This document shows, one piece after another, positions 1-18,655 of a stretch of DNA of 64,000 bases (position 1 is its first letter; each line of letters opens with the position of its first letter). The translations under genes were made by a program, and so were the position numbers. Where the stretch lies: IMG/VR virus record IMGVR_UViG_3300028030_000011, positions 1 through 64,000 of that record. One strand, 5' to 3'. A model generated the notes under the pieces. It made no database searches, was not told where the DNA came from, and worked only from the letters and a program-made list of their open reading frames with translations. Origin of the DNA: a virus.

Positions 1-14
1 ATATATATAGGATT

Positions 15-78
15 TTGATACGATTAATTTGATATGGATTCGTATCAATTGATACGAATTGTATCAAAAAAGTATCAA
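15..78. repeat. Cluster of TTGATAC/GTATCAA half-sites including a perfect 22-bp palindrome ATTCGTATCAATTGATACGAAT (38-59); operator/parS/iteron-like
   Basis: Half-sites at 15, 29 (one mismatch), 42, 49, 61 and 72, directly upstream of the promoter of the ParB-like gene. Confidence 0.75.
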
Positions 79-81
79 TCA

Positions 82-103
82 TTTAAGGTTAAAATGCTAT
101 AAT
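82..103 (+). promoter_or_regulatory. Host sigma70-type promoter (Campylobacterota-like)
   Basis: TTTAAGGTTAAAATGCTATAAT: TTTAAG element plus extended -10 TGnTATAAT, 35 nt before ATG 138. Confidence 0.7.
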
Positions 104-137
104 ATATTTATTAAGAACCACAAACAAAGGAGTTACA

Positions 138-983
138 ATGAGTAATAAAATAATAGCAATTCTTAAAGATATTGATGAATCAGAAGTATCATATCATAAA
201 ATATCAAGGTTTCAATATCAATGGCATGAGTTATCATATACTGAGCCAAAGATGAGTGATAGTGATTATGAAGCATTGAAAGAGGATATACAGCTATTAG
301 GCAAAGTGCATAATCCTGTACTTATTTATGAGAATAAGATACTTGATGGAAGGCATAGACAAAAAGCCTGTGAAGAATTAGACTTTTTGATGCCTATCAA
401 GAAACTTACTAAAGAGTATAACATATCAGACTTAAGAGAGGTAGTTAGGAGTATTCATATGGCAAGAAATAAGACACAAAATCAAAAAATTATACAAGCA
501 TACAGATTCAAACAGACAGTATCTAATGTTACTTGGGAAGATGCTGCGCAAAGACATGGAGTAAAAGTATTAGCAATTAAAAGAATCAATACTCTATATA
601 ATCTTCTTCGAGATAATAATCATGAAAAAGATTTTTATGAAATCATGAGATTATTTGAGTATGGTATTGTATTGAATGAGAAAAAATTTAATTGGTTAAA
701 TAAAAATACTTCATCTTTTAGTGGAGCTATTAAACAGTTTAAAGATTATCTTGATAATTTACAATCAAAAATAAAAAATAAAAATATTGATACAACTGAA
801 ATAAATCCTGAGACAGGTGAGACATTAAAGAAAGATGTAAATCCATTTATAGAGGAATATAATGATGAAAATGCACAATTAAAAAAAGAGATTGAACGAT
901 TAAAAAAAGAAAATGAACAATTAAAGTCACAATTTGAAGAGAAAAATATGACTAAATTGGTTGATAAAATTAAAAACATCTAA
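138..983 (+). CDS. ParB/Srx N-terminal domain protein with C-terminal coiled coil
   Basis: LKEDIQ..NPVLIY..ILDGRHRQKA ParB-N motif; AAGGAG RBS. Confidence 0.7.
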   Translation: MSNKIIAILKDIDESEVSYHKISRFQYQWHELSYTEPKMSDSDYEALKEDIQLLGKVHNPVLIYENKILDGRHRQKACEELDFLMPIKKLTKEYNISDLREVVRSIHMARNKTQNQKIIQAYRFKQTVSNVTWEDAAQRHGVKVLAIKRINTLYNLLRDNNHEKDFYEIMRLFEYGIVLNEKKFNWLNKNTSSFSGAIKQFKDYLDNLQSKIKNKNIDTTEINPETGETLKKDVNPFIEEYNDENAQLKKEIERLKKENEQLKSQFEEKNMTKLVDKIKNI

Positions 984-1030
984 CCAAATGAACCACCTCT
1001 ACCACAACAACTAAATAGAAAGGAAAAATA

Positions 1031-1204
1031 ATGATAACATTAAGTATAAAAGTACATGATAAAACTATCTCTAAACATGATATTCAAAATATGACTTATG
1101 ACCAAGTATACCAATTGGCTAGTATAATCTCTGAAAAAGAGTGGAAGACTATATGCAATTGGTGGAATTATGCTAATCCACATAGCTATAGAATATTACA
1201 ATAG
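1031..1204 (+). CDS. Small hypothetical protein (57 aa, not in ORF track)
   Basis: AAAGGAAAAATA-ATG; open frame MITLSIKVHD...YRILQ*. Confidence 0.6.
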   Translation: MITLSIKVHDKTISKHDIQNMTYDQVYQLASIISEKEWKTICNWWNYANPHSYRILQ

Positions 1205-1216
1205 AAAGGAAAAATA

Positions 1217-1486
1217 ATGGATAATAAAATTAGAGGCAATCAAAAAAATATTAGACCTAAAGATACAATTTTAGAGGATGATAATCAAGCAAAACAAACA
1301 ATAGATGAAGCATTTAAAGCTTTTGGCAAAACATTCAATACGTCTGATGATAAAATAGGTATAACATTTCAAGATGATGACAATACAGTTGGAATACCAC
1401 AATCATTAATTGATTTAGTTGTAGCTCTTAATCCTGTTGATAAAGAGAAGCAAAAAGCAATTACTTATGAACTCTTCAAAAAATAA
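1217..1486 (+). CDS. Hypothetical protein
   Basis: ORF with AAAGGA RBS. Confidence 0.7.
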   Translation: MDNKIRGNQKNIRPKDTILEDDNQAKQTIDEAFKAFGKTFNTSDDKIGITFQDDDNTVGIPQSLIDLVVALNPVDKEKQKAITYELFKK

Positions 1487-1569
1487 AAAAATAAAATATG
1501 TTCTTAATTGTTAGTTATTATTGATAAATTATGAGTAATCTGATAGACTACTAATAAAAAGGATTCCAA

Positions 1570-2271
1570 ATGAATATATTAACACCATTCGGAAAAATAG
1601 TAGTTAGGTGTACATTTTATGGATTAATTTTAACAACAGTTACATCAACTGTAACTGTTGTATATATGCAATATATCTACAATAAAAAAATAGATATTGT
1701 TGATACTGTGCTAAGAAAAATAAATCTTCAACATATACAACAATATGAACCACCTAAACATACTGTAAACAAACCAAAGAATATTATGACTGCTGTAATT
1801 AATCATAAGCCAAATAATATTGACATATATTCTCCTACATACGTAATTACAGATAGTGTAAAGAATGCTATTTATAGCTATGAAAGTAACTTCAATACTA
1901 CAGTATTCTCTCCAAGTAGAAAACATAGTGGATTATGTCAAATGTCTGACGCTGCACTAACTGATGTATTTTATAAAAAAAATCATTTTGCATTTGCAAA
2001 AGAAGATTATAAAACACAAGATATGTATTGCACTAGAAGATTTAATTATATCCTGAATCTTCTAGTGAAAAAACATATTACTCCGAATATTATGAATATA
2101 TATACTGTTCATCAGTTAGGGTATAAAGGTGGTATTAATTTTATAAAAAAACATAAAATCAACAAAACTCATATAGTTAGCAATGTAAATAAGAAAAATC
2201 TTATTGATGCATGGATTAAACAGACAGAATTTAATCTCAATAAAGGATTAAATAAAATCAGAAAGGAATAA
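1570..2271 (+). CDS. Membrane-anchored lytic transglycosylase/lysozyme-fold protein
   Basis: N-terminal TM segment; SLT-like motifs AIYSYESNFN, GLCQM, HQLG. Confidence 0.55.
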   Translation: MNILTPFGKIVVRCTFYGLILTTVTSTVTVVYMQYIYNKKIDIVDTVLRKINLQHIQQYEPPKHTVNKPKNIMTAVINHKPNNIDIYSPTYVITDSVKNAIYSYESNFNTTVFSPSRKHSGLCQMSDAALTDVFYKKNHFAFAKEDYKTQDMYCTRRFNYILNLLVKKHITPNIMNIYTVHQLGYKGGINFIKKHKINKTHIVSNVNKKNLIDAWIKQTEFNLNKGLNKIRKE

Positions 2272-2275
2272 AAAA

Positions 2276-3148
2276 ATGAAATTAAAAAAGAGAAAAAATA
2301 AAAAGAAATCAATAAGTAACAACACAAAGAAGCTTCTCATTCTTACCCTACTAGCTTCAAGCTGTATAGATGCAAGTGAATATACTGATTTAGCTGATGA
2401 GAAAGTAAAAAATGTTTTAAAAAATACTATCTCATTGGCTACAAAATTACATCCAAAAGAAGAGTTGAATAAACTATATGAATTTTTAACAGATGAATTA
2501 AAAAATCATAAATATGATGAGAAATATATAACTGTAGAACAAGCTTTTGTACTATCAATCTTAACAATAGACAGGCATAAACTAGAAAACTTCTTTGGAT
2601 TTAAAAAATTTTCAATAGGTGAACTCGGTTCTTTTACTTCAAAAGAGGTAACTATATGGTTATCATTTTTAAATAAACTTGATGCATTCTGTAATACAAA
2701 ACCTTATGTATCAAAGATAGACCCAAAAGTTATAACAATTATAGAAAGGAGAAAAATAAATAAAAAGAAAAAGACTAGAACACATTCACAATCAAACAAA
2801 ATTGCATCAAAAACAGCTAAACTCTCTAAAGGTAAGCAAAAGTATATAGAGAAGAAAGAAAAGGTTAGAAGTGTTTTAAATAACCTCAAAATTTTAGCAT
2901 TTAAAACTAAGGTAGATAAATTTGTTGAAAATGATGATGATAACTTCTTTATATCTTATGAACCACCTCTCAATACTGACAACATAATATATATACAAGA
3001 TAGTATCAATGGATTAGATTATTGGCTATGGTTCTTAAAAGAAGATGTTAGATACTCATGTGATTGGAAACTTATTACATCTAAAAGATATATTGAAACA
3101 CAAGAAGTACTCCAAGAAATATCGAATGAAATCAAGGAGTTATGGTAA
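2276..3148 (+). CDS. Hypothetical protein (Lys-rich)
   Basis: Long ORF with RBS; no motif recognised. Confidence 0.7.
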   Translation: MKLKKRKNKKKSISNNTKKLLILTLLASSCIDASEYTDLADEKVKNVLKNTISLATKLHPKEELNKLYEFLTDELKNHKYDEKYITVEQAFVLSILTIDRHKLENFFGFKKFSIGELGSFTSKEVTIWLSFLNKLDAFCNTKPYVSKIDPKVITIIERRKINKKKKTRTHSQSNKIASKTAKLSKGKQKYIEKKEKVRSVLNNLKILAFKTKVDKFVENDDDNFFISYEPPLNTDNIIYIQDSINGLDYWLWFLKEDVRYSCDWKLITSKRYIETQEVLQEISNEIKELW

Positions 3149-3381
3149 TGGATGAATATATCGTTGTTAAAAAAATATTCCAAGAATCAGATAAGAATAT
3201 CTATAGAGGTTCAAGAGATGATTGCGAATTTGTAAAAACAATATTAGAGGAATATCATAAATTTGATAGAGATGTATCTATTTCAATAATTGGTGTATAT
3301 ACTGAATTTAATACTATTAGAAGTTTTATGAATGAATATCAATACGAATATGATGAATTAAAAAAGAAAGGAAAATTATGA
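3142..3381 (+). CDS. Hypothetical protein
   Basis: Overlapping start/stop coupling, AAGGAG RBS. Confidence 0.65.
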   Translation: MVMDEYIVVKKIFQESDKNIYRGSRDDCEFVKTILEEYHKFDRDVSISIIGVYTEFNTIRSFMNEYQYEYDELKKKGKL

Positions 3382-3857
3382 AACTATGGTTCAATAAAAA
3401 AACTAAGAAATTCTTAGTAACAGATGATAACTATAATAAGCCAATAAAGCTATTTATGAACAAGGTGGAGGTTACTTTTAAAGAGTTAGAGAAAAGCTCT
3501 TATAATGGATGGAGTGACTTCATATTGCCAAAAAGAGACAATGTTATTCTAATCCCTAATAAGCATGGTAAAACATTTAGTAAATTCAAAGTAATGTATC
3601 ACAATATAAAGATTGCTAAAAGATTTATTGATAGTGGAGATTTACCAATTTATACTCAACATCTTTATTCTATACATTTCTTAAAAACAGAAAAGATGTA
3701 TTGGATTCCATCAAAATATAAAAATAAAGGATTCCCAATACATCTTGAAGATACAGATGGGTTCATTGTATCAATACAATTAGATGATGATGATAATGAT
3801 ATGGCTATATTTGATTACTATATGGCTCAAACAATTAGAGATTATGTGAATCCGTAA
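3378..3857 (+). CDS. Hypothetical protein
   Basis: ATGA coupling, AAAGGA RBS. Confidence 0.7.
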   Translation: MKLWFNKKTKKFLVTDDNYNKPIKLFMNKVEVTFKELEKSSYNGWSDFILPKRDNVILIPNKHGKTFSKFKVMYHNIKIAKRFIDSGDLPIYTQHLYSIHFLKTEKMYWIPSKYKNKGFPIHLEDTDGFIVSIQLDDDDNDMAIFDYYMAQTIRDYVNP

Positions 3858-3928
3858 GACTATTGATTATTGGAATTTCTAGTAATCAACTAAAAGGTAA
3901 ACAGAACCACCTCTACTCCCAACACTCA

Positions 3929-4079
3929 TCCATGAAGTTCAAAATGGATGGGATTGAAATTAAAATGTATTTTAAAGCAACCAAAGCAGGACACCGTAGG
4001 TGTTCTGTCGAAACCCTCGTAGAGTGGTTGGTTTAAAATATATTTTAATTTCAAGTCCATTTATTTTTTACTTCATGGA
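3929..4079. repeat. About 150-bp imperfect inverted repeat with small GC-rich hairpins in the loop
   Basis: TCCATGAAGT/ACTTCATGGA outer arms; 3954-3983 pairs with 4025-4054; loop GGACACC-GTA-GGTGTTC and CTC-GTA-GAG. Confidence 0.85.
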
Positions 4080-4134
4080 CTTACAGCGTAATTGATTTAA
4101 GATATATTAACAAAAAAAATAAAAAGGAAAATAA

Positions 4135-4740
4135 ATGCAAATTATAAAAAAATTATCAAATTTACCACTTAAAGTAAATGAAAAATATTTACTTGAAAAT
4201 ATTACTTATTTAAATGAAAAAAAAGGAATTTATCCACAAGTAACTTTTACAATAAAAAATACAAAATATCAAATCAATTCTCAAAAAATATTCAAAGATA
4301 ATAGAAAAGATTTTGAAGGTAAAGGTGTTGAACTCTGGTTCTTAAGTTGGAAAGATTATAGAGGTGAGAAAAGAGTTAAATTTAGTTTGGATTATGAAGA
4401 TATTCCAGACGAACCAACTGATATAATGACTGTATTTTATTTAATTGATGTAGATGGTTCATTATTCATCAAATGGCATAAAAAAGTTACTAAAAAAACT
4501 ATAAATGAATATAAAGATAGAATAAAAAATAATGATAATATGACTCTTATTGATTCAGTAAATATACCTGTTTTCATTAAACCAAACTATATTCTAAATG
4601 CAATGTTCAAATATATGAAAGATTCAACTTATGGAGATTATCTTATTAGAGATACTCAGAACCATACTACATGGAAGTTTATATGTGAAGTAGTTCTAAA
4701 TGAAGATAGTTATACTAAAAAAAATAAAACTAAACTTTAG
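4135..4740 (+). CDS. Hypothetical protein
   Basis: ORF with AAAAGGA RBS. Confidence 0.7.
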   Translation: MQIIKKLSNLPLKVNEKYLLENITYLNEKKGIYPQVTFTIKNTKYQINSQKIFKDNRKDFEGKGVELWFLSWKDYRGEKRVKFSLDYEDIPDEPTDIMTVFYLIDVDGSLFIKWHKKVTKKTINEYKDRIKNNDNMTLIDSVNIPVFIKPNYILNAMFKYMKDSTYGDYLIRDTQNHTTWKFICEVVLNEDSYTKKNKTKL

Positions 4741-4781
4741 TTTTTTTGAGAGAAATTGACAAAAAACTTTTACTCTGTATG

Positions 4782-4933
4782 CTTCTAGCCTAAGAAATCT
4801 TCAAAGATAAAAATGAAAAGGATAAATTTAAAAGATTTCTCTACGAGGGTAACACGAAACGCTTACAGCGTTCCGTACAAATCTTTCAAATTCATCCTTT
4901 TCATTTTCACTTCTTGCTTTCTTAGACTAGAAG
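4782..4933. repeat. About 150-bp imperfect inverted repeat
   Basis: CTTCTAGCCTAAGAAA/TTTCTTAGACTAGAAG outer arms; 4810-4838 pairs with 4879-4907; loop contains CTCTACGAGGGT, the reverse complement of 4013-4024. Confidence 0.85.
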
Positions 4934-5177
4934 AAGGGTTAAGGAATGAAGAAGTAATTGATTTAAGATAGATACTCTAAAAAAATAAACCTTTTTATAT
5001 ATAAATATATATAAATATATAAGGGTAATTTTCATCAAATCCCATAATCTTGGGAAACATAAGCATTTTAAGCTATTAATTTTGTCGCTATACTATAGTG
5101 CTGACCTACAACTATGTCGTTATAAAGGTAGTTTCAGCTACAATATTGTCGGTAAAATTATAATAAAAGGAGGATTC

Positions 5178-5636
5178 ATGGAAGAAATGAACCCTGATTA
5201 CGAAAGATATTATGATGGTTACGGTGTACCATATCAGCATTATAGCAAAAGATATTTTAATCTTATTAGCAAAATATATCCACCAGAGGAGAGAAATTTG
5301 AAAGCACAAAATACAAAAATAAATTCTGCATATAGAAAAGAACTCATTGAAGCTGTAGGTATTGATGGATATGTACTTATGGAATGGTTCGTAGAAAGAG
5401 TTACATACAGATATTTTAATCCACAAGATAATAAACATATAGGAGATTCATTAGGACTATCACCAAAAAAAATAGAAAGAATAAAAAAGAAATTAAAAGA
5501 GCATAATTATCTTTTAATAGTAAAAGTAAATTCAAACCCTGATGTGTATCAAACAATTATGGGTAAATCAGCAATTAAAGCTTATCTTGGAGATAAGTTT
5601 AAACCAAATGAACCACCACAAGATACTATACAGTAG
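5178..5636 (+). CDS. Winged-HTH protein, putative replication initiator
   Basis: Start moved to ATG 5178 (AAAAGGAGG RBS); HIGDSLGLSPKKIERIKKKLKEHNYL HTH. Confidence 0.55.
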   Translation: MEEMNPDYERYYDGYGVPYQHYSKRYFNLISKIYPPEERNLKAQNTKINSAYRKELIEAVGIDGYVLMEWFVERVTYRYFNPQDNKHIGDSLGLSPKKIERIKKKLKEHNYLLIVKVNSNPDVYQTIMGKSAIKAYLGDKFKPNEPPQDTIQ

Positions 5637-5663
5637 ACGATATGTTGATGGTTCAAAAACAAC
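5608..5663 (+). repeat. 56-bp direct repeat, copy 1 (TGAACCA...TGGTTCA hairpin)
   Basis: Identical to 6640-6695. Confidence 0.95.
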
Positions 5664-5894
5664 TTAGGGTGGAGCGTTCTGCTATGAGTGTGCTTTAGCA
5701 CACGAATGTAAGAAAACCCACACCTTATACTACTTTTGATTACAAGCCTATTTATTTTTTACTTCATGGGCTTACGGCAGTAATTGATTAAGATATATTA
5801 CTCAAAAAAATACTAAAAGATATACTTGTTCAACTTTAGCATAAAAAAACTCATGCAAATCCCACAGTTATGGTCTTTATAAAGGTTTTTAGCT

Positions 5895-5996
5895 GTAACT
5901 GACAGTTACACTTTTATATGTTTTTGCTTCCAAAAAATATCAAATAATAACTATTATTTACATTATTGTTTGCATATTTATGTAATCAACAGTTAC
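5895..5996. promoter_or_regulatory. Two palindromic operator/iteron-like sites upstream of the RepL-like gene
   Basis: TGTAACTGACAGTTACA (about 5894-5910) and TGTAATCAACAGTTAC (5981-5996); TATAAT at 6009. Confidence 0.55.
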
Positions 5997-6040
5997 TATA
6001 TTGTATACTATAATAATTAATAAGAACAAAGGATTTTTAA

Positions 6041-6643
6041 GTGGCTAATGAGTTTAAAGTGTATCCTGTGCATCAAACTTTAGTAGAACAAAGAACTATT
6101 GATGACACAAGAAAATACATAGAAATTATGAAAAGTAAATCTTACAATTATAGAGTCAAATTAATAAAAAAGGATTTAAAAAAGATGAATAGAGAAGGGA
6201 TAGTCATATTTAATTCAATAAGCATGAACTCTGGTAAAGCAGTTCTTCCTATAATGAATTTAATTATTGAAAATACTAATAGGCATAATATGTTATGTAT
6301 TAATAGAACTACTTTTGCAACAACAACTGATTTGGTTAAATTAGCAAAAGTTTCAAGACCTACTGTTACAAAATATATAAAAAAACTTGTAGATAAAAAT
6401 ATCATAAAAAGACATGATAAAAATTTTATGCTTAGTCCATATATCTTCTATCCTAATATTGATGACTTTAACCTCAAAATATTACAAGAGTATTGGGATA
6501 ATGATTTTAAAAAAAGCAAAGAGTCTATAGCTTCTGAAATTCAAGTAGAAATAAACTCTATGCTTGAAGATGCAAAAGAATTTGTAGGAGCTTCAAGAAC
6601 AGAGTTTGAACAATTACAATCAGTTAAAAAAATGACTAGATGA
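6041..6643 (+). CDS. RepL-like replication/maintenance protein (winged HTH)
   Basis: DLVKLAKVSRPTVTKYIKKLVDKNII...FMLSPYIF pattern typical of the RepL family; GTG start with AAAGGA RBS. Confidence 0.6.
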   Translation: MANEFKVYPVHQTLVEQRTIDDTRKYIEIMKSKSYNYRVKLIKKDLKKMNREGIVIFNSISMNSGKAVLPIMNLIIENTNRHNMLCINRTTFATTTDLVKLAKVSRPTVTKYIKKLVDKNIIKRHDKNFMLSPYIFYPNIDDFNLKILQEYWDNDFKKSKESIASEIQVEINSMLEDAKEFVGASRTEFEQLQSVKKMTR

Positions 6644-6695
6644 ACCACCACAAGATACTATACAGTAGACGATATGTTGATGGTTCAAAAACAAC
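6640..6695 (+). repeat. 56-bp direct repeat, copy 2
   Basis: Identical to 5608-5663. Confidence 0.95.
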
Positions 6696-6709
6696 GAAAG
6701 GAATAAAAA

Positions 6710-7216
6710 ATGATTAATAAAATTAAAAAATATATTGAATATCTAACAACTATGAGACAACATATTCAACTGGTTCATAAAGATAGAGCTATCTATGGTC
6801 AAGTACAAACAATAGATGACATTATCAGTATTCAGAATCATTTAAAGAAATTAGAAGCAATTCTACAAAAAGAACTTGATGATAAAAGATACTACATCAT
6901 ATCATTTGATTGTAATGGTTTACTTGTAATTAATGATGTAGTAATCAATCAACTAGTGTTCTATCGAGAGTTAATCGACTATAAACCAGAAAATAAGCTT
7001 GAATTGATTGAATCAATACAAGAGCTTACCAAAGATGCTGATGAACAGTATTTAGCACTAATGCGTGATGATATAGCCCATTTACAATCAATTGATGATG
7101 AGATATGCTTCAATCATATTGAAACTAATGAATATATCTTCTTTAGTGAACAACCTGATAAGTTCAATGAAATATGTGAAAGAATATTAGATGAGCATTA
7201 TACGTTATCTAGCTGA
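6710..7216 (+). CDS. Hypothetical protein
   Basis: ORF with AAAGGA RBS. Confidence 0.7.
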   Translation: MINKIKKYIEYLTTMRQHIQLVHKDRAIYGQVQTIDDIISIQNHLKKLEAILQKELDDKRYYIISFDCNGLLVINDVVINQLVFYRELIDYKPENKLELIESIQELTKDADEQYLALMRDDIAHLQSIDDEICFNHIETNEYIFFSEQPDKFNEICERILDEHYTLSS

Positions 7217-7220
7217 CTGA

Positions 7221-7271
7221 TGAACCACTCTAAATAGTGTTACCTATACAATGAGTCTATTGAGTGGTTCA
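7221..7271. terminator. Hairpin TGAACCACTC...GAGTGGTTCA
   Basis: Inverted repeat just after stop 7216. Confidence 0.55.
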
Positions 7272-7350
7272 AATAGCTTAGAATTGATTCTCATGCTTTT
7301 TTCTACATTTTACTTAGACACATGGCTTTTAGCCTGTGTCTTAATACTGA

Positions 7351-7407
7351 TTGTTAGTTAATTTTAACTACCCTAAATGGACTACTTGTTAGTTAATTTT
7401 AACTATA
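7351..7407 (+). repeat. Two copies of TTGTTAGTTAATTTTAACTA
   Basis: At 7351 and 7387; internal palindrome TAGTTAA-TT-TTAACTA. Confidence 0.8.
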
Positions 7408-7524
7408 CCGAACTACTAAGTACATTTTCTCTCAATGAAGCGTAGCGAAAATTGAGAGTGGTTGTAAAACATATTTTCTATGCCATTATTTCTAATGGCA
7501 TTAAAGTTCCAATGGAAATAATAG

Positions 7525-7614
7525 AGAGTAAAATTTTTTAACTTTCTACTAGATAGTAAAATTTTTTTACCTAGATAGTAAAATTTTTTTACCTAGATAG
7601 TAAAATTTTTTTAC
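7525..7614 (+). repeat. 22-bp iteron-like tandem repeat TAGATAGTAAAATTTTTTTACC x3 plus one degenerate copy; putative replication origin
   Basis: Units at 7550, 7572, 7594 (two helical turns each); degenerate copy at 7525; AT-rich tract follows. Confidence 0.8.
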
Positions 7615-7735
7615 TATGGCTTTTTTAATTTAATCTTAAATATAAATATTATATGTATAGATAACATATATAATTTTTATATGTTTTTTATATAATATAT
7701 GCTACAATTGCATAACTAACAAATAGGAGTCAAAA

Positions 7736-7912
7736 ATGTCAGATATGACTAAAGTACGAAAAAAAGCTAAAAAAGGTGTTCTAATCAATCTTGATGAGAA
7801 CAGCAAAATGCTTCTTATTCTGTTAGCTGAAAAAGATACTAGCTCAATGAGCCAAGTAATTAGAAGGTTAATCAATGATGAAGCAAGAAGACGAGATATT
7901 AAGCTCGACTAA
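7736..7912 (+). CDS. CopG/ribbon-helix-helix regulator (58 aa, not in ORF track)
   Basis: AGGAG RBS; GVLINLDENSKMLLILLAEKDTSSMSQVIRRLI fits the RHH pattern; overlaps the next gene. Confidence 0.7.
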   Translation: MSDMTKVRKKAKKGVLINLDENSKMLLILLAEKDTSSMSQVIRRLINDEARRRDIKLD

Positions 7913-8315
7913 TAGTTGGCAAAATATAGGTATTTGTACTCAATTAATGAGAGACAAAATTCAACCTAAGTATTGGAATGTTTATCTTGAAATTGTAAGT
8001 AGGTCATTTGGATATGGTCAATCTAAAACAAATAGATATATAATGAAAGAATGGTGCAAATGGCTTAAAATTACAAAACCAACTTTTATAAAACATATTC
8101 ATTGGTTATCTGATAACAATTTCATTGAAATAATTCAATATCAAGAATATGTTGTAGATGGTGGTTCAAAACCATTTGCTTATGCACCTACATTTCCACA
8201 TAAAATTGATAAAAAGTATGGTCTTATAAATATTAAAGATATACAAAAAGACCGTGATAGAAAGAAAAGAAAAAAAGAAGCACAAGAACAAGCAAAAAAT
8301 AGAACATTAATCTAA
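7875..8315 (+). CDS. Phage replication-initiator-like (O-protein N-terminal wHTH) protein
   Basis: YLEIVSRSFGYGQ...WCKWLKITKPTFIKHIHWLSDNNFI. Confidence 0.5.
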   Translation: MMKQEDEILSSTNSWQNIGICTQLMRDKIQPKYWNVYLEIVSRSFGYGQSKTNRYIMKEWCKWLKITKPTFIKHIHWLSDNNFIEIIQYQEYVVDGGSKPFAYAPTFPHKIDKKYGLINIKDIQKDRDRKKRKKEAQEQAKNRTLI

Positions 8316-8372
8316 ATGACTACTACATGCTATAGGTGCATCATGCATCCAAATAAATAAAAAGGGAAAACA

Positions 8373-8879
8373 ATGGATATATTAAAAGAAAGAAAAGAGA
8401 AGTTAAAAAGAGACGAAATAGAGGATATCAGACTAAAGAAATTAAGAGAAAATATTTGTAAAAAAATAACTCTTAATAATGATATTAGACTAGAGATATT
8501 CGATAAATTATATGGTACTGATTTGATTGAAAAAGGCGAAGTTATTTTAGGAAGAAGTGATGAAATACAAACAATAGAAATATATAAAACAATGAATTGT
8601 TTCCCATTTACAAATGTTTCAGCAACTGATTTTGTAACAGCTTTTAAACCATTGGGTTATAAAAAATGGTCAAATATATGTGATGTATGGAGTTTTGGTA
8701 GAAAAATAACAGATTATGGAGATTTACTTAGAATAGAATCTTTATACCTGAATGAAGAGGAAAGTAAAAAAATAATAGATATTGGTAGTAAAAAATATAA
8801 TTGCAAAACAAAAATTGAAAATAGACAATTATTGTTTGGTGGTAAAGTAGAAGCAATAATTTTGTATTTAGATGAATAA
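8373..8879 (+). CDS. Hypothetical protein
   Basis: ORF with AAAAGGGA RBS. Confidence 0.7.
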   Translation: MDILKERKEKLKRDEIEDIRLKKLRENICKKITLNNDIRLEIFDKLYGTDLIEKGEVILGRSDEIQTIEIYKTMNCFPFTNVSATDFVTAFKPLGYKKWSNICDVWSFGRKITDYGDLLRIESLYLNEEESKKIIDIGSKKYNCKTKIENRQLLFGGKVEAIILYLDE

Positions 8880-9271: not shown

Positions 9272-9505
9272 ATGAATGATGATTTAATATTATTAATAAG
9301 CTATGTAGACTCAAAGTTGAGTCTACATAAAATTGTATTAACTGTAGAACATGGTATGAATGATAGAGAGTGGATAAACTGGAAATATTATGAAGAAGAT
9401 AGTATTCAAGAAATATACAAAAATGCATTACCTCTATATATTAAAAACCATGTTAACAAAATTATACATGTAGAGAAAATATTTCAAGCCATTATTAAAA
9501 AATAA
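9272..9505 (+). CDS. Hypothetical protein
   Basis: ORF with RBS. Confidence 0.65.
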   Translation: MNDDLILLISYVDSKLSLHKIVLTVEHGMNDREWINWKYYEEDSIQEIYKNALPLYIKNHVNKIIHVEKIFQAIIKK

Positions 9506-13019: not shown

Positions 13020-14825
13020 ATGAAGATACAACTATACGATTATCAACAAGAAGCTGTTGATGAAATAGAATCAGAGTTTATGCTTGGTTCAAATAAAGTT
13101 ATATTATCAGCATGTACCTCTTATGGAAAGACATTTACGTCATTATTCTATGCCATAGAGAATACAATGGGTAGGGTATTTATCTCTCTATCAATATCAG
13201 CTTTAGTAGACCAATTTATAGAATCTATCAACAAACTTGAATTTGAAGATTATGGAGTTGTTAAAAGAGGATATGAGCATCTATACAATCCACAAGCTAG
13301 AATCCAAATAATTATGGATAATAGTTTTGTTAATAAACTTACTGATTTTGGTAGAGATTGTGAATTGCTCATTATAGATGAAATACATGTTAGAATAACT
13401 GGTGATAGGATGAAACAAATAATTGGTTGGTTACAACCTGAATATATTTTAGGAATGTCAGGTACACCTTATGATTCACGAGGATTCATTATAACAGGTT
13501 TTACTACCATAGAGACAATAACACTTAAAGAGTTAACAGATAGGGGTAAATTGACTCCTATACGTTATTTTACTACTAAATTTGCAACAGAAGAGGATTT
13601 ATCTTGTTACACAATTAGTGGAGATGATTATAGTCAAGAATCTTTGTCAAATTTATATAGCTCTGATGAGTATATGCGTAAAATGGTAGATGCTTATAAA
13701 AACATTGGTGATAAAATTGATTTAAATCCATATAACTGTAAAAGTATATGGCTATGCAGCACTATAGAAGCTTGTAATAAGTTGGAGGCAAAACTACAAG
13801 ATAATGGATTTGAAATATATGCTTATCATGGTAAGTTATCAGATACTGAAAGTAAGCAGTTGATGCACTCATTTAGGACAGGAGAACCACTTCCACCACA
13901 AGCAAGAAATTTATTAAATTATAATACAAGAGAAGAAAATAGATATGTTAATGGGTTAATATCAGTTCAAAAGTTAGCTGTAGGATTTGATGTTCCTGAC
14001 ATAGATATTGGTGTTGCTTGTAGCACTACAAAAGTTCGTTCAAAAATTATGCAGTACTATGGAAGATTGTGTAGGAAATCACCAAAAAAAGAAACAGCAT
14101 ACTTCTTAGACTTTGGTCAAAATATTATGCTCCATGGCTTTGCTGATGAAGATTATAAACCACTTCCACCTGATGCTGATGTTGAAGAGATAAAAGAAAA
14201 CAAAAGAAAACATTCTCTTGAATATCTTGATATTGTGTTTGATGGTTCAATTGGTTTACTTGAAATAAATAGAGAATCATACGAACTTAAATTAAAAGAA
14301 ATGAAACAAGAAGGCAAATCATTGTCTGAGTTAACAATAGAAGAGCTTAAGAATAAATTTGCAATAGAAGAAGATTATCTTGAATTGATAATTATGATGT
14401 TTGCATTTGTAAATAAAGTATATGGGTATGACGGAAAAAATGATACTCGTAATTATAAATCAAAATCATGGGATAAGGAGAACAATAGAGAAAAAGAAAA
14501 GGTAAATTATAACTTTTATAATGAATCAAAAGTTGATTGGGTAAGTGAAACATGGATAAAACTTTTCGATAAATATGATGATAAATATCTTCATAGAAAA
14601 TGGACTAAAGCTCTTAAAACAAGAATTAGAAGTGTTGTAAATTCTCAAAAGAGTATCTATAGTATTAGATTCTTTGCAGAAAAGTTAGAAGAGTGGTATC
14701 TTGAAGAGCAAGATAAAGAAATTGAAGTAGTTTATGAACCATCTGAATTAGAGAAACAATTAGAACAACAATCACAAGATGTATTTGAATATGAAATAGA
14801 AATAGATGAATCTATTCCATTCTGA
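13020..14825 (+). CDS. SF2 DEAD/DEAH-box (ResIII-like) helicase
   Basis: LYDYQ Q-motif, SYGKT, DEIH, SGTP, GFDVP, QYYGRLCR. Confidence 0.9.
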   Translation: MKIQLYDYQQEAVDEIESEFMLGSNKVILSACTSYGKTFTSLFYAIENTMGRVFISLSISALVDQFIESINKLEFEDYGVVKRGYEHLYNPQARIQIIMDNSFVNKLTDFGRDCELLIIDEIHVRITGDRMKQIIGWLQPEYILGMSGTPYDSRGFIITGFTTIETITLKELTDRGKLTPIRYFTTKFATEEDLSCYTISGDDYSQESLSNLYSSDEYMRKMVDAYKNIGDKIDLNPYNCKSIWLCSTIEACNKLEAKLQDNGFEIYAYHGKLSDTESKQLMHSFRTGEPLPPQARNLLNYNTREENRYVNGLISVQKLAVGFDVPDIDIGVACSTTKVRSKIMQYYGRLCRKSPKKETAYFLDFGQNIMLHGFADEDYKPLPPDADVEEIKENKRKHSLEYLDIVFDGSIGLLEINRESYELKLKEMKQEGKSLSELTIEELKNKFAIEEDYLELIIMMFAFVNKVYGYDGKNDTRNYKSKSWDKENNREKEKVNYNFYNESKVDWVSETWIKLFDKYDDKYLHRKWTKALKTRIRSVVNSQKSIYSIRFFAEKLEEWYLEEQDKEIEVVYEPSELEKQLEQQSQDVFEYEIEIDESIPF

Positions 14826-14841
14826 TAACAAGGAGTAAACA

Positions 14842-15666
14842 ATGGAAACATTAGAAAAAATATATAAAGAGATAATTCTTAATTCTACTCAATATAGTGG
14901 AGAAAAGAAGAAACGACAGAAGATACTTAGTGCATCACAACTACTTATTGACCCTATAGCATGGAGATTAAAGTATGAGCATGGTGTAATTGAGAGAGAT
15001 AATATAGGTCAAAATACTATAGGTTCACTATTGCAATTAGGTATAGATGAATGCGTTGACAAATATAATAAAAAACATACTGAAATACATGCATTATATG
15101 CACAAAGATTTACAGCTACATTGATAAATGATTTTACTCTATCAGGAGAAATTGACCAATTGATAGAAGTAGATGATACTCTTTGGATTATTGATAATAA
15201 ACTTATTAAACATGGTAAATTTGAACAAATCAAAAAAGAAGGAGCTTATAATGAGTATGCATTACAGGTAAGAGCATATAAGTATTTGCTACAACAATAT
15301 GACCATTATAGTAAATATAATATTCGTATGGTTTTATTTCTCTGGTTCAAAGATGGTACAAAATTTGGAAAAAAACCTTTAACTGATTATGAATTGTATG
15401 AGATAGAAGATAATTTCTCTAATAGTGAGTTTGAAAAAGAGATATTATACCCAAAAGTATTAGACCTTGAAGAGTCGCTTGTTATCCCTAGTGAAAATTT
15501 AGAACAATGTTCTAATTTGTTTTGGAACAATAGAGGAAAAGGAGAGAAATCAGAACCATTCAAATGTATGTATTTCTGTGATTATAATAAATATTGTCCT
15601 CATTATAAAAAATATAATAAAGGTGCAGGAAGAAAAAATCTAATTAATTTAATAAGTAAATTATAA
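14842..15666 (+). CDS. PD-(D/E)XK exonuclease (Cas4/AddB-like, C-terminal Cys cluster)
   Basis: LSASQL, SGEID, IIDNK, QVRAY, CMYFCDYNKYC. Confidence 0.75.
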   Translation: METLEKIYKEIILNSTQYSGEKKKRQKILSASQLLIDPIAWRLKYEHGVIERDNIGQNTIGSLLQLGIDECVDKYNKKHTEIHALYAQRFTATLINDFTLSGEIDQLIEVDDTLWIIDNKLIKHGKFEQIKKEGAYNEYALQVRAYKYLLQQYDHYSKYNIRMVLFLWFKDGTKFGKKPLTDYELYEIEDNFSNSEFEKEILYPKVLDLEESLVIPSENLEQCSNLFWNNRGKGEKSEPFKCMYFCDYNKYCPHYKKYNKGAGRKNLINLISKL

Positions 15667-15676
15667 AGGAAAAATT

Positions 15677-16519
15677 ATGAATAAAAAAAATATAAGAAAA
15701 ATGATTGAATCTAAAATGAATAAATGGGTTAATTCTATTACAGATGAAGATTTAGTGCAAAGATTAAGACAAGATATTATTGTCACAGGTGGATGCATTA
15801 CATCAATGTATTTAAATGAAAATGTAAATGATTATGATATTTACATTTCGGATAAAAAAACGTTAATGATGTTAGCTCAATATTATTGTGATAGATACAA
15901 TGATATTGAATATAAAACAGCTCGTAATAATGACATTAACTCATTTCAGAGAGCTGTAGTAAATATTGAAAATAATAGAATTGAAATTTATTATAATAAA
16001 ACTACATTAGAAGATTATGAGGGCTATCAAAATATTTCTATTAAAACAGATGATTGTATCTGTTACCCAATTATTATTACTCCAAATGCTATAACTATTA
16101 CAGAAGGCATTCAAATTATTACAAGATTCTATGGAACTCCAAATGATATTCATTCAAACTTTGATTTTGTTCATGCAACAAATTACTGGACATATAAAGA
16201 TGGTTTAGTGTTAAGAGAAGAAGCATTAGAATCAATACTGTCAAAACAACTAAGATATATAGGTTCTAAATATCCATTAGCTTCTGTAATAAGAACTAAG
16301 AAATTCATCAAACGTGGATGGAATATTACAGCAGGTCAATATTTAAAAATGCTATTGCAATTAAACAAGATGAACTTAATGGATATTAGAACGCTTAAAG
16401 ACCAACTAGAAGGAGTTGATGCTACATACTTTATTCAATTTATAGAAGCAATAAAAGATAGAAAAGATGTAGATGATACATTTATGAGTGAAATTATTGA
16501 TAAAATATTTGAGGATTAA
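15677..16519 (+). CDS. Pol-beta-fold nucleotidyltransferase-like phage protein
   Basis: IVTGGCITS...VNDYDIY and NFDFVH motifs. Confidence 0.55.
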   Translation: MNKKNIRKMIESKMNKWVNSITDEDLVQRLRQDIIVTGGCITSMYLNENVNDYDIYISDKKTLMMLAQYYCDRYNDIEYKTARNNDINSFQRAVVNIENNRIEIYYNKTTLEDYEGYQNISIKTDDCICYPIIITPNAITITEGIQIITRFYGTPNDIHSNFDFVHATNYWTYKDGLVLREEALESILSKQLRYIGSKYPLASVIRTKKFIKRGWNITAGQYLKMLLQLNKMNLMDIRTLKDQLEGVDATYFIQFIEAIKDRKDVDDTFMSEIIDKIFED

Positions 16520-16522
16520 ATA

Positions 16523-18655
16523 ATGAAAATAGATGATATAGTAAATGAAATAATCAAGGCTGGTAAACGTAAAACAGACCCAATGATTATCAAAGCTACT
16601 CTTCTTTATTTTGGAGCTATCTTGTTAAATAGATACTCTATTAGAAAAAATATAGATACTCTTCCAAATAGAATAAATGCATATTTTCTTGTATTTGCAG
16701 TATCTGGTTCAGGTAAAAGTTTTATAATAAAAATAGTTGAAAATTTATGTGATTTAGAATCTTATGCAAAACAAAGAAAAACTGTATATGAATATATTAT
16801 GGATTTATCTGAATGTGAACCAGATGACCAAACAATAAAGTTCCTACAAGGTAATGCTTACTCTCTTGGAGTATCAGGAACAAAAGAAGGATTGTTTGAA
16901 TATTGTAAAGCTTATACTACTAGTCAGTTTGGTTCTATAAACATTCAATCTGATGAGATAGGAGATAATATAAATAGTTCTAACGACCTTTTGAACCAGC
17001 TTAAACAGATGTATGATGGTAAACTTCAAAAGAAGATTATTAAAGGCTCAGAAGAAGATTTTCCTGATGATGATATACATGGAATAGTTTGTAATTTTTA
17101 TGGAACTGGTTCAAAATCAGCCATAGATGCAAAAGATAGAAAAAAGCTAACAAATCTTGTTAAATCAGGTATGTTTAGAAGAAGTATATGTATTGATTCA
17201 AAATTACAAGTTGAGAAGAAAATAATGGAAGAAGTTAATTATGAACCAATTCACAAATGGTTCATAGATTTAAATTTAAAGCATAAAAAGTCATTATCAA
17301 ATAGACTTGAAAAGTATGGAATGATTGGAACTTTAGATACTTTTATAAAATTTAGCAATAAAGCTATAGAAAAAGTAGATGATATAGATAAGCTTCTTGT
17401 TCAAAGAGCTAATAAAGATAAAATCAATGACCTTAAACAGATAGATACAGGGTCACTTGATATGATTATTAATATTGCTTGTATCATTTCTTTTTTACAA
17501 GACGATAAAGAAGTTGAAACTATACATCTTGATACAGCGTATCAATTCTTCTTAGATACTAGAGAAACAGTAGAGAAAACATTTGATGATATTCATGCTC
17601 ATGATGAAGCATATAGAGTGTTAAAGCTAAAAAGTTCTCTTACGCATAGTGAAATAATGGATATTAGTGGACTTGATATTATACCTAAAGGTAAAAACTC
17701 TTGGAAAGATACAATAGAATTAGTTCATGAGCTATGTTATCGTAATGGAGAATATCTTAAAGAGAGTAGTGGCAGGGTTAAACGATATACGATTGAGCCA
17801 TTACCTGAAACTAATTTAGACCACCTAATCTTTTCATTGTCTACTGACGATAGAGGTGCTAAAGCAATTGCATTTAATCCTGTAGAGCTTGAATGGAATG
17901 ATATTGAATATCTTGTTAAAAGTAACAAGGTTGAATCATTTACAACTTCTCATTATAAAGAAAGTAATCATACAGGAGATTATGGTCATAGAAAAGCAGA
18001 ATATGCAATACAAGGGCAAAACGTAATAGCATTCGATATAGATAGTGGGTTAACAATAGAAAAGGCTAGAGAGCTATTTTCAAGCTTTACATATTGTTTA
18101 TATACAACAAAATCACATCAAACAGAGAAAGGAGATTATTGTGATAGATTTAGAATAATATTACCAACAAAACATAAATTTTATGTTACACCTGAACAAC
18201 ATAAAGAGATGATAAAAAATGCTGAAATGGTATTAGGGTTAAAAAGTAATGATATACAAACTAGAAATGTATCTAGGCTTTGGTTCACTAATCAAAATGC
18301 TGATGAAGTAATTATTAATGATGGAGAACTATTTGATATATCAGGAATGATACCTGATACTAATAAATCAGATAAGTTTTTACCAAAACTCAAAGAGATG
18401 ATGTCTAATGTTAATCAGACTTGTGAAATGCAAGATGAAATAACCAATAGAATAAATGGATTTACTAGGTATGCAATGTCTGTAGTAGCAGTAGGTAATC
18501 TTAAAGATACACTATTTAAACTAGGAACTTTCTGTATTGATTTAGGTTATCCATTATGGGAACAAAAGATGATTGATTTTACAAGAACTATTGGCTCTCC
18601 AATGCATATTACAGAAACAACAATAAAATCTCTTAAATCAAAATATAAATTATAA
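16523..18655 (+). CDS. Helicase-primase (N-terminal P-loop ATPase, C-terminal AEP/PrimPol-like domain)
   Basis: SGSGKS and SDE Walker motifs N-terminally; AFDID, YTTKSH, DRFRIILP C-terminally. Confidence 0.7.
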   Translation: MKIDDIVNEIIKAGKRKTDPMIIKATLLYFGAILLNRYSIRKNIDTLPNRINAYFLVFAVSGSGKSFIIKIVENLCDLESYAKQRKTVYEYIMDLSECEPDDQTIKFLQGNAYSLGVSGTKEGLFEYCKAYTTSQFGSINIQSDEIGDNINSSNDLLNQLKQMYDGKLQKKIIKGSEEDFPDDDIHGIVCNFYGTGSKSAIDAKDRKKLTNLVKSGMFRRSICIDSKLQVEKKIMEEVNYEPIHKWFIDLNLKHKKSLSNRLEKYGMIGTLDTFIKFSNKAIEKVDDIDKLLVQRANKDKINDLKQIDTGSLDMIINIACIISFLQDDKEVETIHLDTAYQFFLDTRETVEKTFDDIHAHDEAYRVLKLKSSLTHSEIMDISGLDIIPKGKNSWKDTIELVHELCYRNGEYLKESSGRVKRYTIEPLPETNLDHLIFSLSTDDRGAKAIAFNPVELEWNDIEYLVKSNKVESFTTSHYKESNHTGDYGHRKAEYAIQGQNVIAFDIDSGLTIEKARELFSSFTYCLYTTKSHQTEKGDYCDRFRIILPTKHKFYVTPEQHKEMIKNAEMVLGLKSNDIQTRNVSRLWFTNQNADEVIINDGELFDISGMIPDTNKSDKFLPKLKEMMSNVNQTCEMQDEITNRINGFTRYAMSVVAVGNLKDTLFKLGTFCIDLGYPLWEQKMIDFTRTIGSPMHITETTIKSLKSKYKL

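Follow-up and report, generated by a model that had tools for sequence, protein, structure and literature searches.

Non-coding blocks, a candidate replication origin and a RepL cassette in the left arm of an N4-like phage

Organisation of the left arm

We analysed positions 1–64000 (the window) of the 76,293-bp IMG/VR virus record IMGVR_UViG_3300028030_000011, focusing on positions 1–8315, where five non-coding blocks of 137–519 nt are each followed by a gene on the + strand; genome-wide counts cover the whole 76-kb record. The blocks, A to E, lie at 1–137, 3858–4134 (277 nt), 4741–5177 (437 nt), 5637–6040 (404 nt) and 7217–7735 (519 nt), and the genes behind them, named by their first nucleotide, are 138, 4135, 5178, 6041 and, after block E, the pair 7736 and 7875. 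A reading made earlier from the letters alone (the original prediction) had counted four or five such blocks and taken them for plasmid-like modules of origin plus initiator. The anatomy of the left arm is real and unusual for an N4-like phage; the reading as tandem replicons or a phage-plasmid is, as a whole, not supported.

We assign the phage to the N4-like group (Schitoviridae), collinear with N4, as had been predicted, because of a 3626-aa open reading frame (ORF) on the minus strand at 28874–39754, a capsid protein that shares 46% identity with its coliphage N4 counterpart and occupies nearly the same place on the map, and the N4-like core gene “DNA primase / DNS protein” (“dns”, 16523–18655), which matches 468 N4-like phage records. 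Positions 1–8315 form the left (early-side) arm and are the positional counterpart of N4 gp1–gp14. The genome is poor in GC (about 27%). Megablast against phages revealed no close relative of the genome among cultured phages, and IMG/VR peptide-pattern scans with 6041, 138 and the capsid protein likewise returned no close relatives. Rfam gave no match at gathering scores in the window and chance-level matches only at E ≤ 1 in 1–8400, a tRNA scan found none, and PADLOC and NCBIfam scans returned nothing specific.

Non-coding DNA makes up 38% of 3858–8315, and exact repeated 17-mers number 75 in 1–8400, against 0.09 expected from Markov shuffles. The private repeats of blocks A, C, D and E are each confined to their own block genome-wide, and all operator and iteron words are unique in the same way; the hairpins, palindromes and iterons reported in the original prediction are real, with folding z-scores down to −13.8 as DNA. 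Two small ORFs (3863–4036 and 4813–4971), both within long hairpins, are very unlikely to be real genes. A generic promoter scan was uninformative at 28% GC (75 sites versus 74 expected), and TTTAAG was rejected as a general promoter word, having no association with gene starts.

The iteron cassette and the RepL cassette

Block E begins with a TGAACCA palindrome (7221–7271), a hairpin (7316–7341) and two 25-nt repeats with a palindromic core (7346–7370 and 7381–7405), continues with hairpin H1, whose loop is GAAGCGTAGCGAAA (7429–7458), hairpin H2 (7480–7501) and the box TTCCAATGGAAATA (7507–7520), and ends in four 22-bp iterons (7521–7614) and an AT-rich tract (7615–7735) containing TATAAT (7689–7694). 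The iterons are spaced at 28, 22 and 22, and the adjoining tract is 84% AT compared with 70% for the genome, so that block E shares the layout of iteron-type theta origins, namely at least three direct repeats of 17–22 bp in helical phase beside an AT-rich tract. Next come a basic 58-aa ORF (7736–7912, + strand) and gene 7875 (7875–8315, + strand), which encodes a 146-aa winged-helix protein of the HTH_36/O-N class. The first had been predicted to be CopG and is ribbon-helix-helix-like by pattern, its match to Pfam RHH_1 (E 0.033) falling below threshold; the second had been called O-like, a description borne out by Atlas features and by structure, which place it in the HTH_36 / DnaD_N / Phage_rep_O neighbourhood of winged helices, short of the Pfam cut-offs.

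The sole IMG/VR locus with a homologue of 7875 (50% identity), the related phage fragment L010, conserves block E over about 290 nt and keeps its whole non-coding architecture. The GC hairpin H1 is retained with a wholly different stem (CTCTCAAT/ATTGAGAG here, CCACACTGC/GCAGTGTGG in L010) around a conserved loop (GAAGC..TAGCGAA), a second hairpin is also kept with exchanged stem sequences, and each of the two contains 8–9 compensated pairs. The loop word TAGCGA may resemble the CS-6 word of ssoA origins, a likeness to which we give no weight. The box TTCCAATG(G/T)AAATA is common to both loci. The iterons, four in each, align in register around the core GATAGT..AAAA, and behind them lie a promoter-like stretch, a small ORF and the winged helix-turn-helix (wHTH) gene; BLASTP between the small ORFs (7736 and that of L010) gave no alignment, their likeness being positional and by eye. 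In L010 the stop codon of the wHTH gene overlaps the start of a 693-aa DUF3987/PriCT_1 protein, an arrangement of translational coupling, and this protein is 29% identical (E 1e-62) to the product of 16523–18655 (+ strand), the 710-aa P4-type primase dns, which is encoded 8 kb downstream in our phage and is the proposed partner of 7875. Because compensated hairpins lie upstream of the promoter, iterons lie beside an AT-rich tract and the module is fused to a primase operon in L010, cassette E is the best candidate, by inference and from one relative, for an origin plus initiator, with 7875 as its candidate origin-binding protein. IMG/VR pattern scans with the block E hairpin-box or the RepL box described below found only the contig of L010 and one chance match. 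Elsewhere in the genome, a 427-nt non-coding block (71548–71974) with three direct repeats TAGTGTAAGTGACTCA, whose core resembles the L010 iterons, precedes a 704-aa ORF without a Pfam match.

Block D comprises a GC hairpin (5666–5725), a copy of the 3′ arm of block B together with a 36-nt box (5734–5812), a conserved hairpin box (5857–5893) and two predicted operators, GTAACTGACAGTTAC (5895–5909) and GTAATCAACAGTTAC (5982–5996), which represent a private palindrome, GTAAY-N5-GTTAC, at 5895 and 5982; the second overlaps the −35 of a sigma-70-like promoter, TCAACA-17-TATAAT (5986–6014). Gene 6041 (6041–6643, + strand) encodes a 200-aa winged-helix protein that scores 26.4 bits against Pfam RepL (PF05732; cut-off 20.3) over model positions 35–153 of 164 (119 positions), in agreement with its earlier description as RepL-like; MarR and TrmB also exceed their cut-offs, but only across the 40-residue helix-turn-helix. 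Among 126 weak tblastn matches in 7.3 Gb of plasmids, nearly all are to small Staphylococcus/Bacillus plasmids, and among the matches listed every annotated one is RepL, the rest being unannotated. A profile built from seven 6041 homologues (A1) retrieved 42 relatives from 1.84 billion representatives, with RepL the commonest Pfam family (15/39, best E 1.3e-32). By these profile and alignment matches, we place 6041 in the RepL family.

The RepL cassette is bounded by two + strand copies, 97% identical, of a 61-nt direct repeat (5603–5663 and 6635–6695) that carries a TGAACCA...TGGTTCA palindrome and had escaped the original prediction. With such repeats on both sides, block D and 6041 form a 1032-bp unit (5664–6695) flanked by direct repeats. 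The final nine codons of 5178 fall within the left repeat and differ from those of its homologue P0010, which is otherwise 80% identical; that the two C termini diverge where the repeat starts is as expected for a recombination junction. Judged from these junctions and from the further occurrences of the cassette given below, RepL cassette D is an inserted mobile unit.

Further homologues of 6041 are found in a distant N4-like fragment, where the gene stands at a contig end (L006/G001; 34% identity in the capsid protein), in a nucleotide-metabolism module of a contig of about 100 kb (L007; ribonucleotide reductase, ThyX and UvrD) and in a 2-kb fragment (L008). All three cassettes keep a box of about 35 nt (a CCCAYA..TGGG hairpin, then AGGTTTT) with palindromes after it. 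In our phage this box, also absent from the original prediction, stands before both 5178 (5037–5073) and 6041 (5857–5893), and its CCCA..TGGG element is conserved in five cassettes of four phages. Within the 6041 family the N- and C-terminal parts are conserved and the recognition-helix segment is hypervariable, and the upstream palindromes are GTAAC-N5-GTTAC here and in L007, TAACT-N3-AGTTA in L006 and GATACT/AGTATC in L008, so that the palindromes vary together with the helix. A second, paralogous RepL-like cassette lies on the minus strand of the right arm (genome 69779–70420; 780–1420 of L011); its gene, P0057, aligns with the 6041 family at an hhalign probability of 94% (E 1.5e-7) and is preceded by the same conserved box and by palindromes of its own, TGTATCA-N5-TGATACA and GATACAATATTGTATC. 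The L006 and L007 cassettes have palindromic sites within or next to their −10. Since an operator overlaps the −35 of the 6041 promoter, the palindromes would at least be autoregulatory operators, autoregulation being the minimal function and certain if binding occurs. In L007, four palindromic iterons AGTGTCTCTGTGACACT (9371–9505) and very GC-rich hairpins occupy a 785-nt non-coding stretch upstream of the 6041 homologue, and the ribonucleotide reductase large subunit (13030–16269) is split by an intein with a LAGLIDADG domain.

The palindrome within the 61-nt repeats belongs to a larger set. Genes 138, 3378, 5178, 6041 and 6710 each have a GAACCAC element at their stop codon or beside it, and the window has 28 occurrences of TGAACCAC, on both strands, where 1.2 would be expected, often as (A)ATGAACCACC at gene ends (e.g. 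989, 1746, 2959, 5609, 6641 and 7221). Across the genome this gene-end word is over-represented about 25-fold, so that its link with gene ends explains only part of its occurrence; at 26–29 kb the same palindrome is joined directly to a TGATATAAT promoter, between KilA-N/Rha cassettes. As with promoter-early stem-loops (PeSLs), repeated stem-loops surround accessory genes and direct repeats surround a cassette (5664–6634). Directly after the right 61-nt repeat, and without a block of its own, comes a 168-aa acidic ORF of no family (6710–7216, + strand). In L008, two successive genes end with the same word, CTTAAGAACCAACTACAAA (1289–1320 and 1815–1850), followed by the next ribosome-binding site (RBS); in this other phage, the word represents a variant form of the GAACCA element seen at gene ends.

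The remaining blocks and the shared box

Block A contains five GTATCA/TGATAC half-sites (16–79), which include a perfect 18-bp palindrome TCGTATCAATTGATACGA (40–57), and then an extended −10 TGCTATAAT (95–103), and prolongs the repeat-rich right contig end (75970–76293). Gene 138 (138–983, + strand) encodes a 281-aa protein with a ParB_N-like N-terminal half and a C-terminal coiled coil. The earlier label of ParB-like is a lead only: Atlas features reach 0.93 to ParB_N clusters and template modelling (TM) scores 0.52–0.55 to phage ParB_N models, and there is no Pfam ParB match. Block A is a promoter-operator region before this ParB_N-like gene and is not replicon-like. Its half-sites form the sole such cluster in the genome (five in 57 nt) and are of the type found in front of the right-arm RepL-like gene P0057, whose protein might on that account bind the left terminus too. 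The right contig end, which adjoins block A, consists of 320 nt of non-coding DNA after an intrinsic-terminator-like hairpin and carries CTATTTCC(G/T)A at least 10 times, in either orientation, with two hairpins built from these copies; it is likely to be a terminal, packaging or binding-site region.

Block B consists of a 151-nt near-perfect hairpin (3929–4079; folding z = −9.9 as RNA and −13.8 as DNA) and a 36-nt box (4085–4121), after which the RBS and ATG of 4135 follow directly. This 201-aa ORF (4135–4740, + strand) has no assignable family in Pfam, PHROG and PADLOC/NCBIfam-type scans, and family searches gave no DNA-binding or Rep signal; block B is not replicon-like. Block C has a sigma-70-like TTGACA-16-TATGCT (4756–4783), a hairpin of about 150 nt (4786–4935; z = −6.9 as DNA), a 36-nt box (4950–4987), a palindromic tract of 87% AT (4975–5030), the conserved hairpin box at 5037–5073 and three TGTCG-N-TA repeats at 32-nt spacing (5083, 5115 and 5147). 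Gene 5178 (5178–5636, + strand), predicted to encode a wHTH protein, specifies 152 aa that are weakly HTH_36-like (Pfam HTH_36 E 0.037; PHROG 21584 E 5e-7; PHROG 428 “replication initiation” E 0.003); its AlphaFold2 (AF2) model was unusable, with a predicted local distance difference test (pLDDT) of 42. On thin evidence, cassette C may be of the same kind as RepL cassette D. A 12-nt word, ACCCTCGTAGAG, in the head of hairpin B (4013–4024) has its exact reverse complement in the head of hairpin C (4839–4850), and base pairing between the heads would be possible in RNA or single-stranded DNA.

The box shared by blocks B, C and D, (A)GTAATTGATTTAAGATAnATnAC..AAAAAAATA, measures about 36 nt and has three copies, starting at 4085, 4950 and 5776, with none elsewhere in the 76-kb genome. 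The shorter motif first noticed at 4088, 4954 and 5780 is its core, exact at the first two positions and with a 1-nt deletion at the third, and the resemblance of 4057–4120 to 5748–5810 extends to an alignment of 4043–4121 with 5734–5812 (87 columns including gaps). Since block E, the most origin-like block, has no copy, the box is not an origin feature common to the modules, and a role as an origin element is not supported. A sigma-70 reading (TTGATT-17-AAAAAT) was rejected as the sole explanation, as the start site in block B would fall inside the RBS of 4135. With N4 P1 and P2 as comparison, copy B forms the hairpin TTAC-AGC-GTAA (4-bp stem, 3-nt loop), copy D forms TTAC-GGCA-GTAA (4 bp, 4 nt) and copy C has no hairpin; a 5–7-bp stem with a 3-nt loop and conserved flanks in all copies, as in N4-type hairpin promoters, was not found, and that reading was also rejected. 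The box is more likely a common expression or regulatory signal of the three cassettes than part of an origin, and is possibly a promoter for one of the phage polymerases.

Interpretation and comparison with known systems

The reading we favour, tentatively and at somewhat less than an even chance, is that the region is a hyperplastic early-side arm of shuffled cassettes, in which E is likely to be the phage origin, acting with 7875, and D is a mobile RepL unit. From 3.9 kb on, self-contained cassettes, each made of a long structured non-coding block, private repeats and a small gene, would have been exchanged by recombination at the repeated gene-end hairpins (the TGAACCA palindromes). The products of 5178, 6041 and 7875 would be winged-helix proteins, the class used by replication initiators. 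Cassette E would most likely serve as the replication origin: 7875 would bind the four 22-bp iterons, the adjoining 84% AT tract would melt, the P4-type dns primase would then be brought in, and the small 7736 protein would autoregulate the operon. In cassette D, 6041 would bind its own GTAAY-N5-GTTAC palindromes and, through the one that overlaps its promoter, regulate itself; 6041 and its sites may also constitute a second, orthogonal initiator-site pair. DNA binding, origin firing and promoter activity are what we infer here, from the sequence features, family memberships, synteny and covariation reported above.

Several observations weigh against this reading. The iterons lie just upstream of the operon's promoter and could be plain operators; 7875 and its homologues have only weak generic wHTH scores, below Pfam thresholds (HTH_36 1.5e-4 in homologues, Phage_rep_O 0.14); 7875 is a single small domain without the helicase-loading part of lambda O; it sits 8 kb from the primase in this phage, and the primase synteny rests on one relative. 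Cultured N4-like phages contain no homologue of 7875 or 6041, which places both outside the conserved N4 replication apparatus. The AF2 model of 6041 (pLDDT 69) and PDB searches match only generic MarR-type winged-helix regulators, and unrelated genes at 70–72 kb also have non-coding blocks with private repeats in front of them, which makes such repeats a general regulatory style in this genome.

Much of this would also follow if no block were an origin and the cassettes were moron-like autoregulated units for DNA-binding proteins (regulators of host take-over or of related-phage exclusion), with iterons and palindromes as operators and long hairpins as 5′ leader RNAs or terminators. The operator over the −35 of 6041, the sites within or beside the −10 in L006 and L007, the MarR-type repressors matched by 6041 in structure and PDB profile searches and the private repeats at 70–72 kb all fit such units, as does the sigma-70-like promoter directly before the long hairpin of block C, which resembles the promoter and structured leader of the KilA-N/Rha cassettes at 26–29 kb. 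We nevertheless consider this account unlikely, while ranking it above the other alternatives: RepL proteins act as replication initiators in those plasmids in which they have been investigated (PMC5703833), the nearest PHROG families for 5178 and 6041, all weak matches, are almost without exception ones of replication initiation, the E module of L010 heads a primase operon with overlapping start and stop codons, and two structure-conserved hairpins upstream of a promoter are hard to explain as operators. A transcriptional explanation of another kind, to which we attach a distinctly smaller probability, is that the blocks serve chiefly as early transcription signals of the N4 type, the 36-nt box or the CCCA..TGGG boxes being promoters of the injected virion RNA polymerase (vRNAP), the hairpins its terminators and the DNA-binding genes ordinary early ORFans. 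The position matches N4 gp1–gp14, exactly three box copies run in the direction of the genes as do N4 P1–P3 (PMC4496689), copies B and D place a 4-bp-stem hairpin about 15 nt before a G, like LUZ7 early promoters (PMC9163698), and the CCCA..TGGG box is kept across five cassettes. Copy C is hairpin-free, however, the region has no family of 5–7-bp stems and 3-nt loops with common flanks, the first 3.9 kb would be left with no such promoter, and L007 keeps the CCCA..TGGG box although its contig is not established as N4-like; iterons, RepL membership and primase synteny would all go unexplained. Fragments G001 and G002 yielded no vRNAP, a result that is uninformative.

The original prediction, that four or five independent plasmid-like modules accumulated so as to escape incompatibility or support a phage-plasmid life, now seems very unlikely. 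It would account for three initiator-class wHTH genes each with private sites, for a hypervariable recognition helix in the 6041 family that parallels the incompatibility variation of pSN2 RepL (PMC5703833), for module sizes of 0.9–1.1 kb that resemble the matched 1.27-kb RepL plasmids, and for hairpins of about 150 nt, similar in size to single-strand origins (PMC5703833). What survives of the modules is the origin-like layout of block E with 7736/7875; blocks A and B lack that character, 4135 has no Rep or DNA-binding signal, and the motif shared by three blocks is missing from the most origin-like one. The ParB_N-like gene after block A has no ParA partner: the 76-kb record, searched with positive controls, contains no PF13614 or PF01656 match for a ParA-type ATPase, and thus no ParABS set, and no tyrosine integrase was found in it either. 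The lack of both leaves a phage-plasmid state without support. Near-matches to DnaA boxes show no enrichment (29 in the window versus 25.6 expected, none in the blocks), although not all iteron origins need such boxes, and N4-like phages are known only as lytic, with linear genomes and their own polymerase and primase. Equally improbable in our view is a bolder extension of the cassette-shuffling reading, in which the RepL cassettes are true mini-replicons, either parasites or servants of a lytic phage: recombination between the 61-nt repeats would free a self-replicating circle of about 1 kb, carrying initiator, private sites and a structured hairpin like a single-strand origin, such circles would move between unrelated phages with orthogonal helix/site pairs, and genome replication in the clade would start at an iteron origin read by an O-like, dns-loading protein.

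To our knowledge, how N4-like phages choose the start of replication is not settled; the N4 literature consulted names required replication proteins, including dns, but no origin. The conserved combination of hairpins, iterons and winged-helix gene, physically joined in one relative to the operon of the dns primase, makes a concrete and testable candidate origin for a clade of these phages. The RepL-type cassettes, with their helix/site covariation, flanking repeats, two copies per genome and occurrence in unrelated phages, suggest that initiator-site pairs travel as shuffled cassettes in lytic phages; if true, this would supply orthogonal DNA-binding pairs and perhaps selfish mini-replicons. 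If the cassettes are instead plain autoregulated regulators, the region would be an ordinary, if unusually elaborate, accessory arm.

Among iteron origins (lambda ori/O, P4 ori/alpha primase and pSK639), the last has five 22-bp repeats upstream of rep (PMC5703833). Block E resembles these systems in its four 22-bp repeats, its AT-rich tract, the winged-helix gene downstream of a small candidate regulator and, in L010, the junction of this pair with a P4-type primase operon; it differs in that 7875 is a single small wHTH protein (146 aa), not Rep_3 or a full O protein, and falls below Pfam thresholds, that DnaA boxes are lacking, that the primase lies 8 kb off and that two conserved hairpins precede the iterons. 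The lytic replicon of phage P1 has a RepL. RepL is otherwise the initiator family of pSN2-type plasmids, in which incompatibility groups vary in the DNA-recognition segment (PMC5703833). Like these proteins, 6041 scores above the Pfam threshold, is small (200 versus about 158 aa), has a central helix-turn-helix and varies, across its family, in the recognition segment; it departs from them in its extra conserved N- and C-terminal segments, its setting in a lytic N4-like phage of a low-GC host and its putative sites, which are palindromes over its own promoter, the likeness resting on the protein and not on a double-strand or single-strand origin (dso/ssoA). The early and middle hairpin promoters of N4 (P1–P3) and LUZ7 (PMC4496689, PMC9163698) share with the 36-nt box and its surroundings genome position, orientation, the number of three copies and, in some elements, small GC hairpins some 15 nt ahead of a conserved G, whereas here the three copies do not all retain the hairpin, loops measure 3, 4 or 6 nt, and the elements begin 4 kb from the contig start. 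PeSL cassettes, finally, shuffle ORFans in T4-type phages and give mini-circles (PMC2839356, PMC4122927). Ours belong to another phage family, have another repeat sequence and are much longer, with large private structured blocks and DNA-binding genes that have putative sites of their own; as in PeSLs, however, the accessory genes of a hyperplastic region are delimited by repeated gene-end stem-loops, to which a TGATATAAT promoter is directly joined elsewhere in the genome, and one cassette has 61-nt direct repeats that could give rise to a 1032-bp circle.

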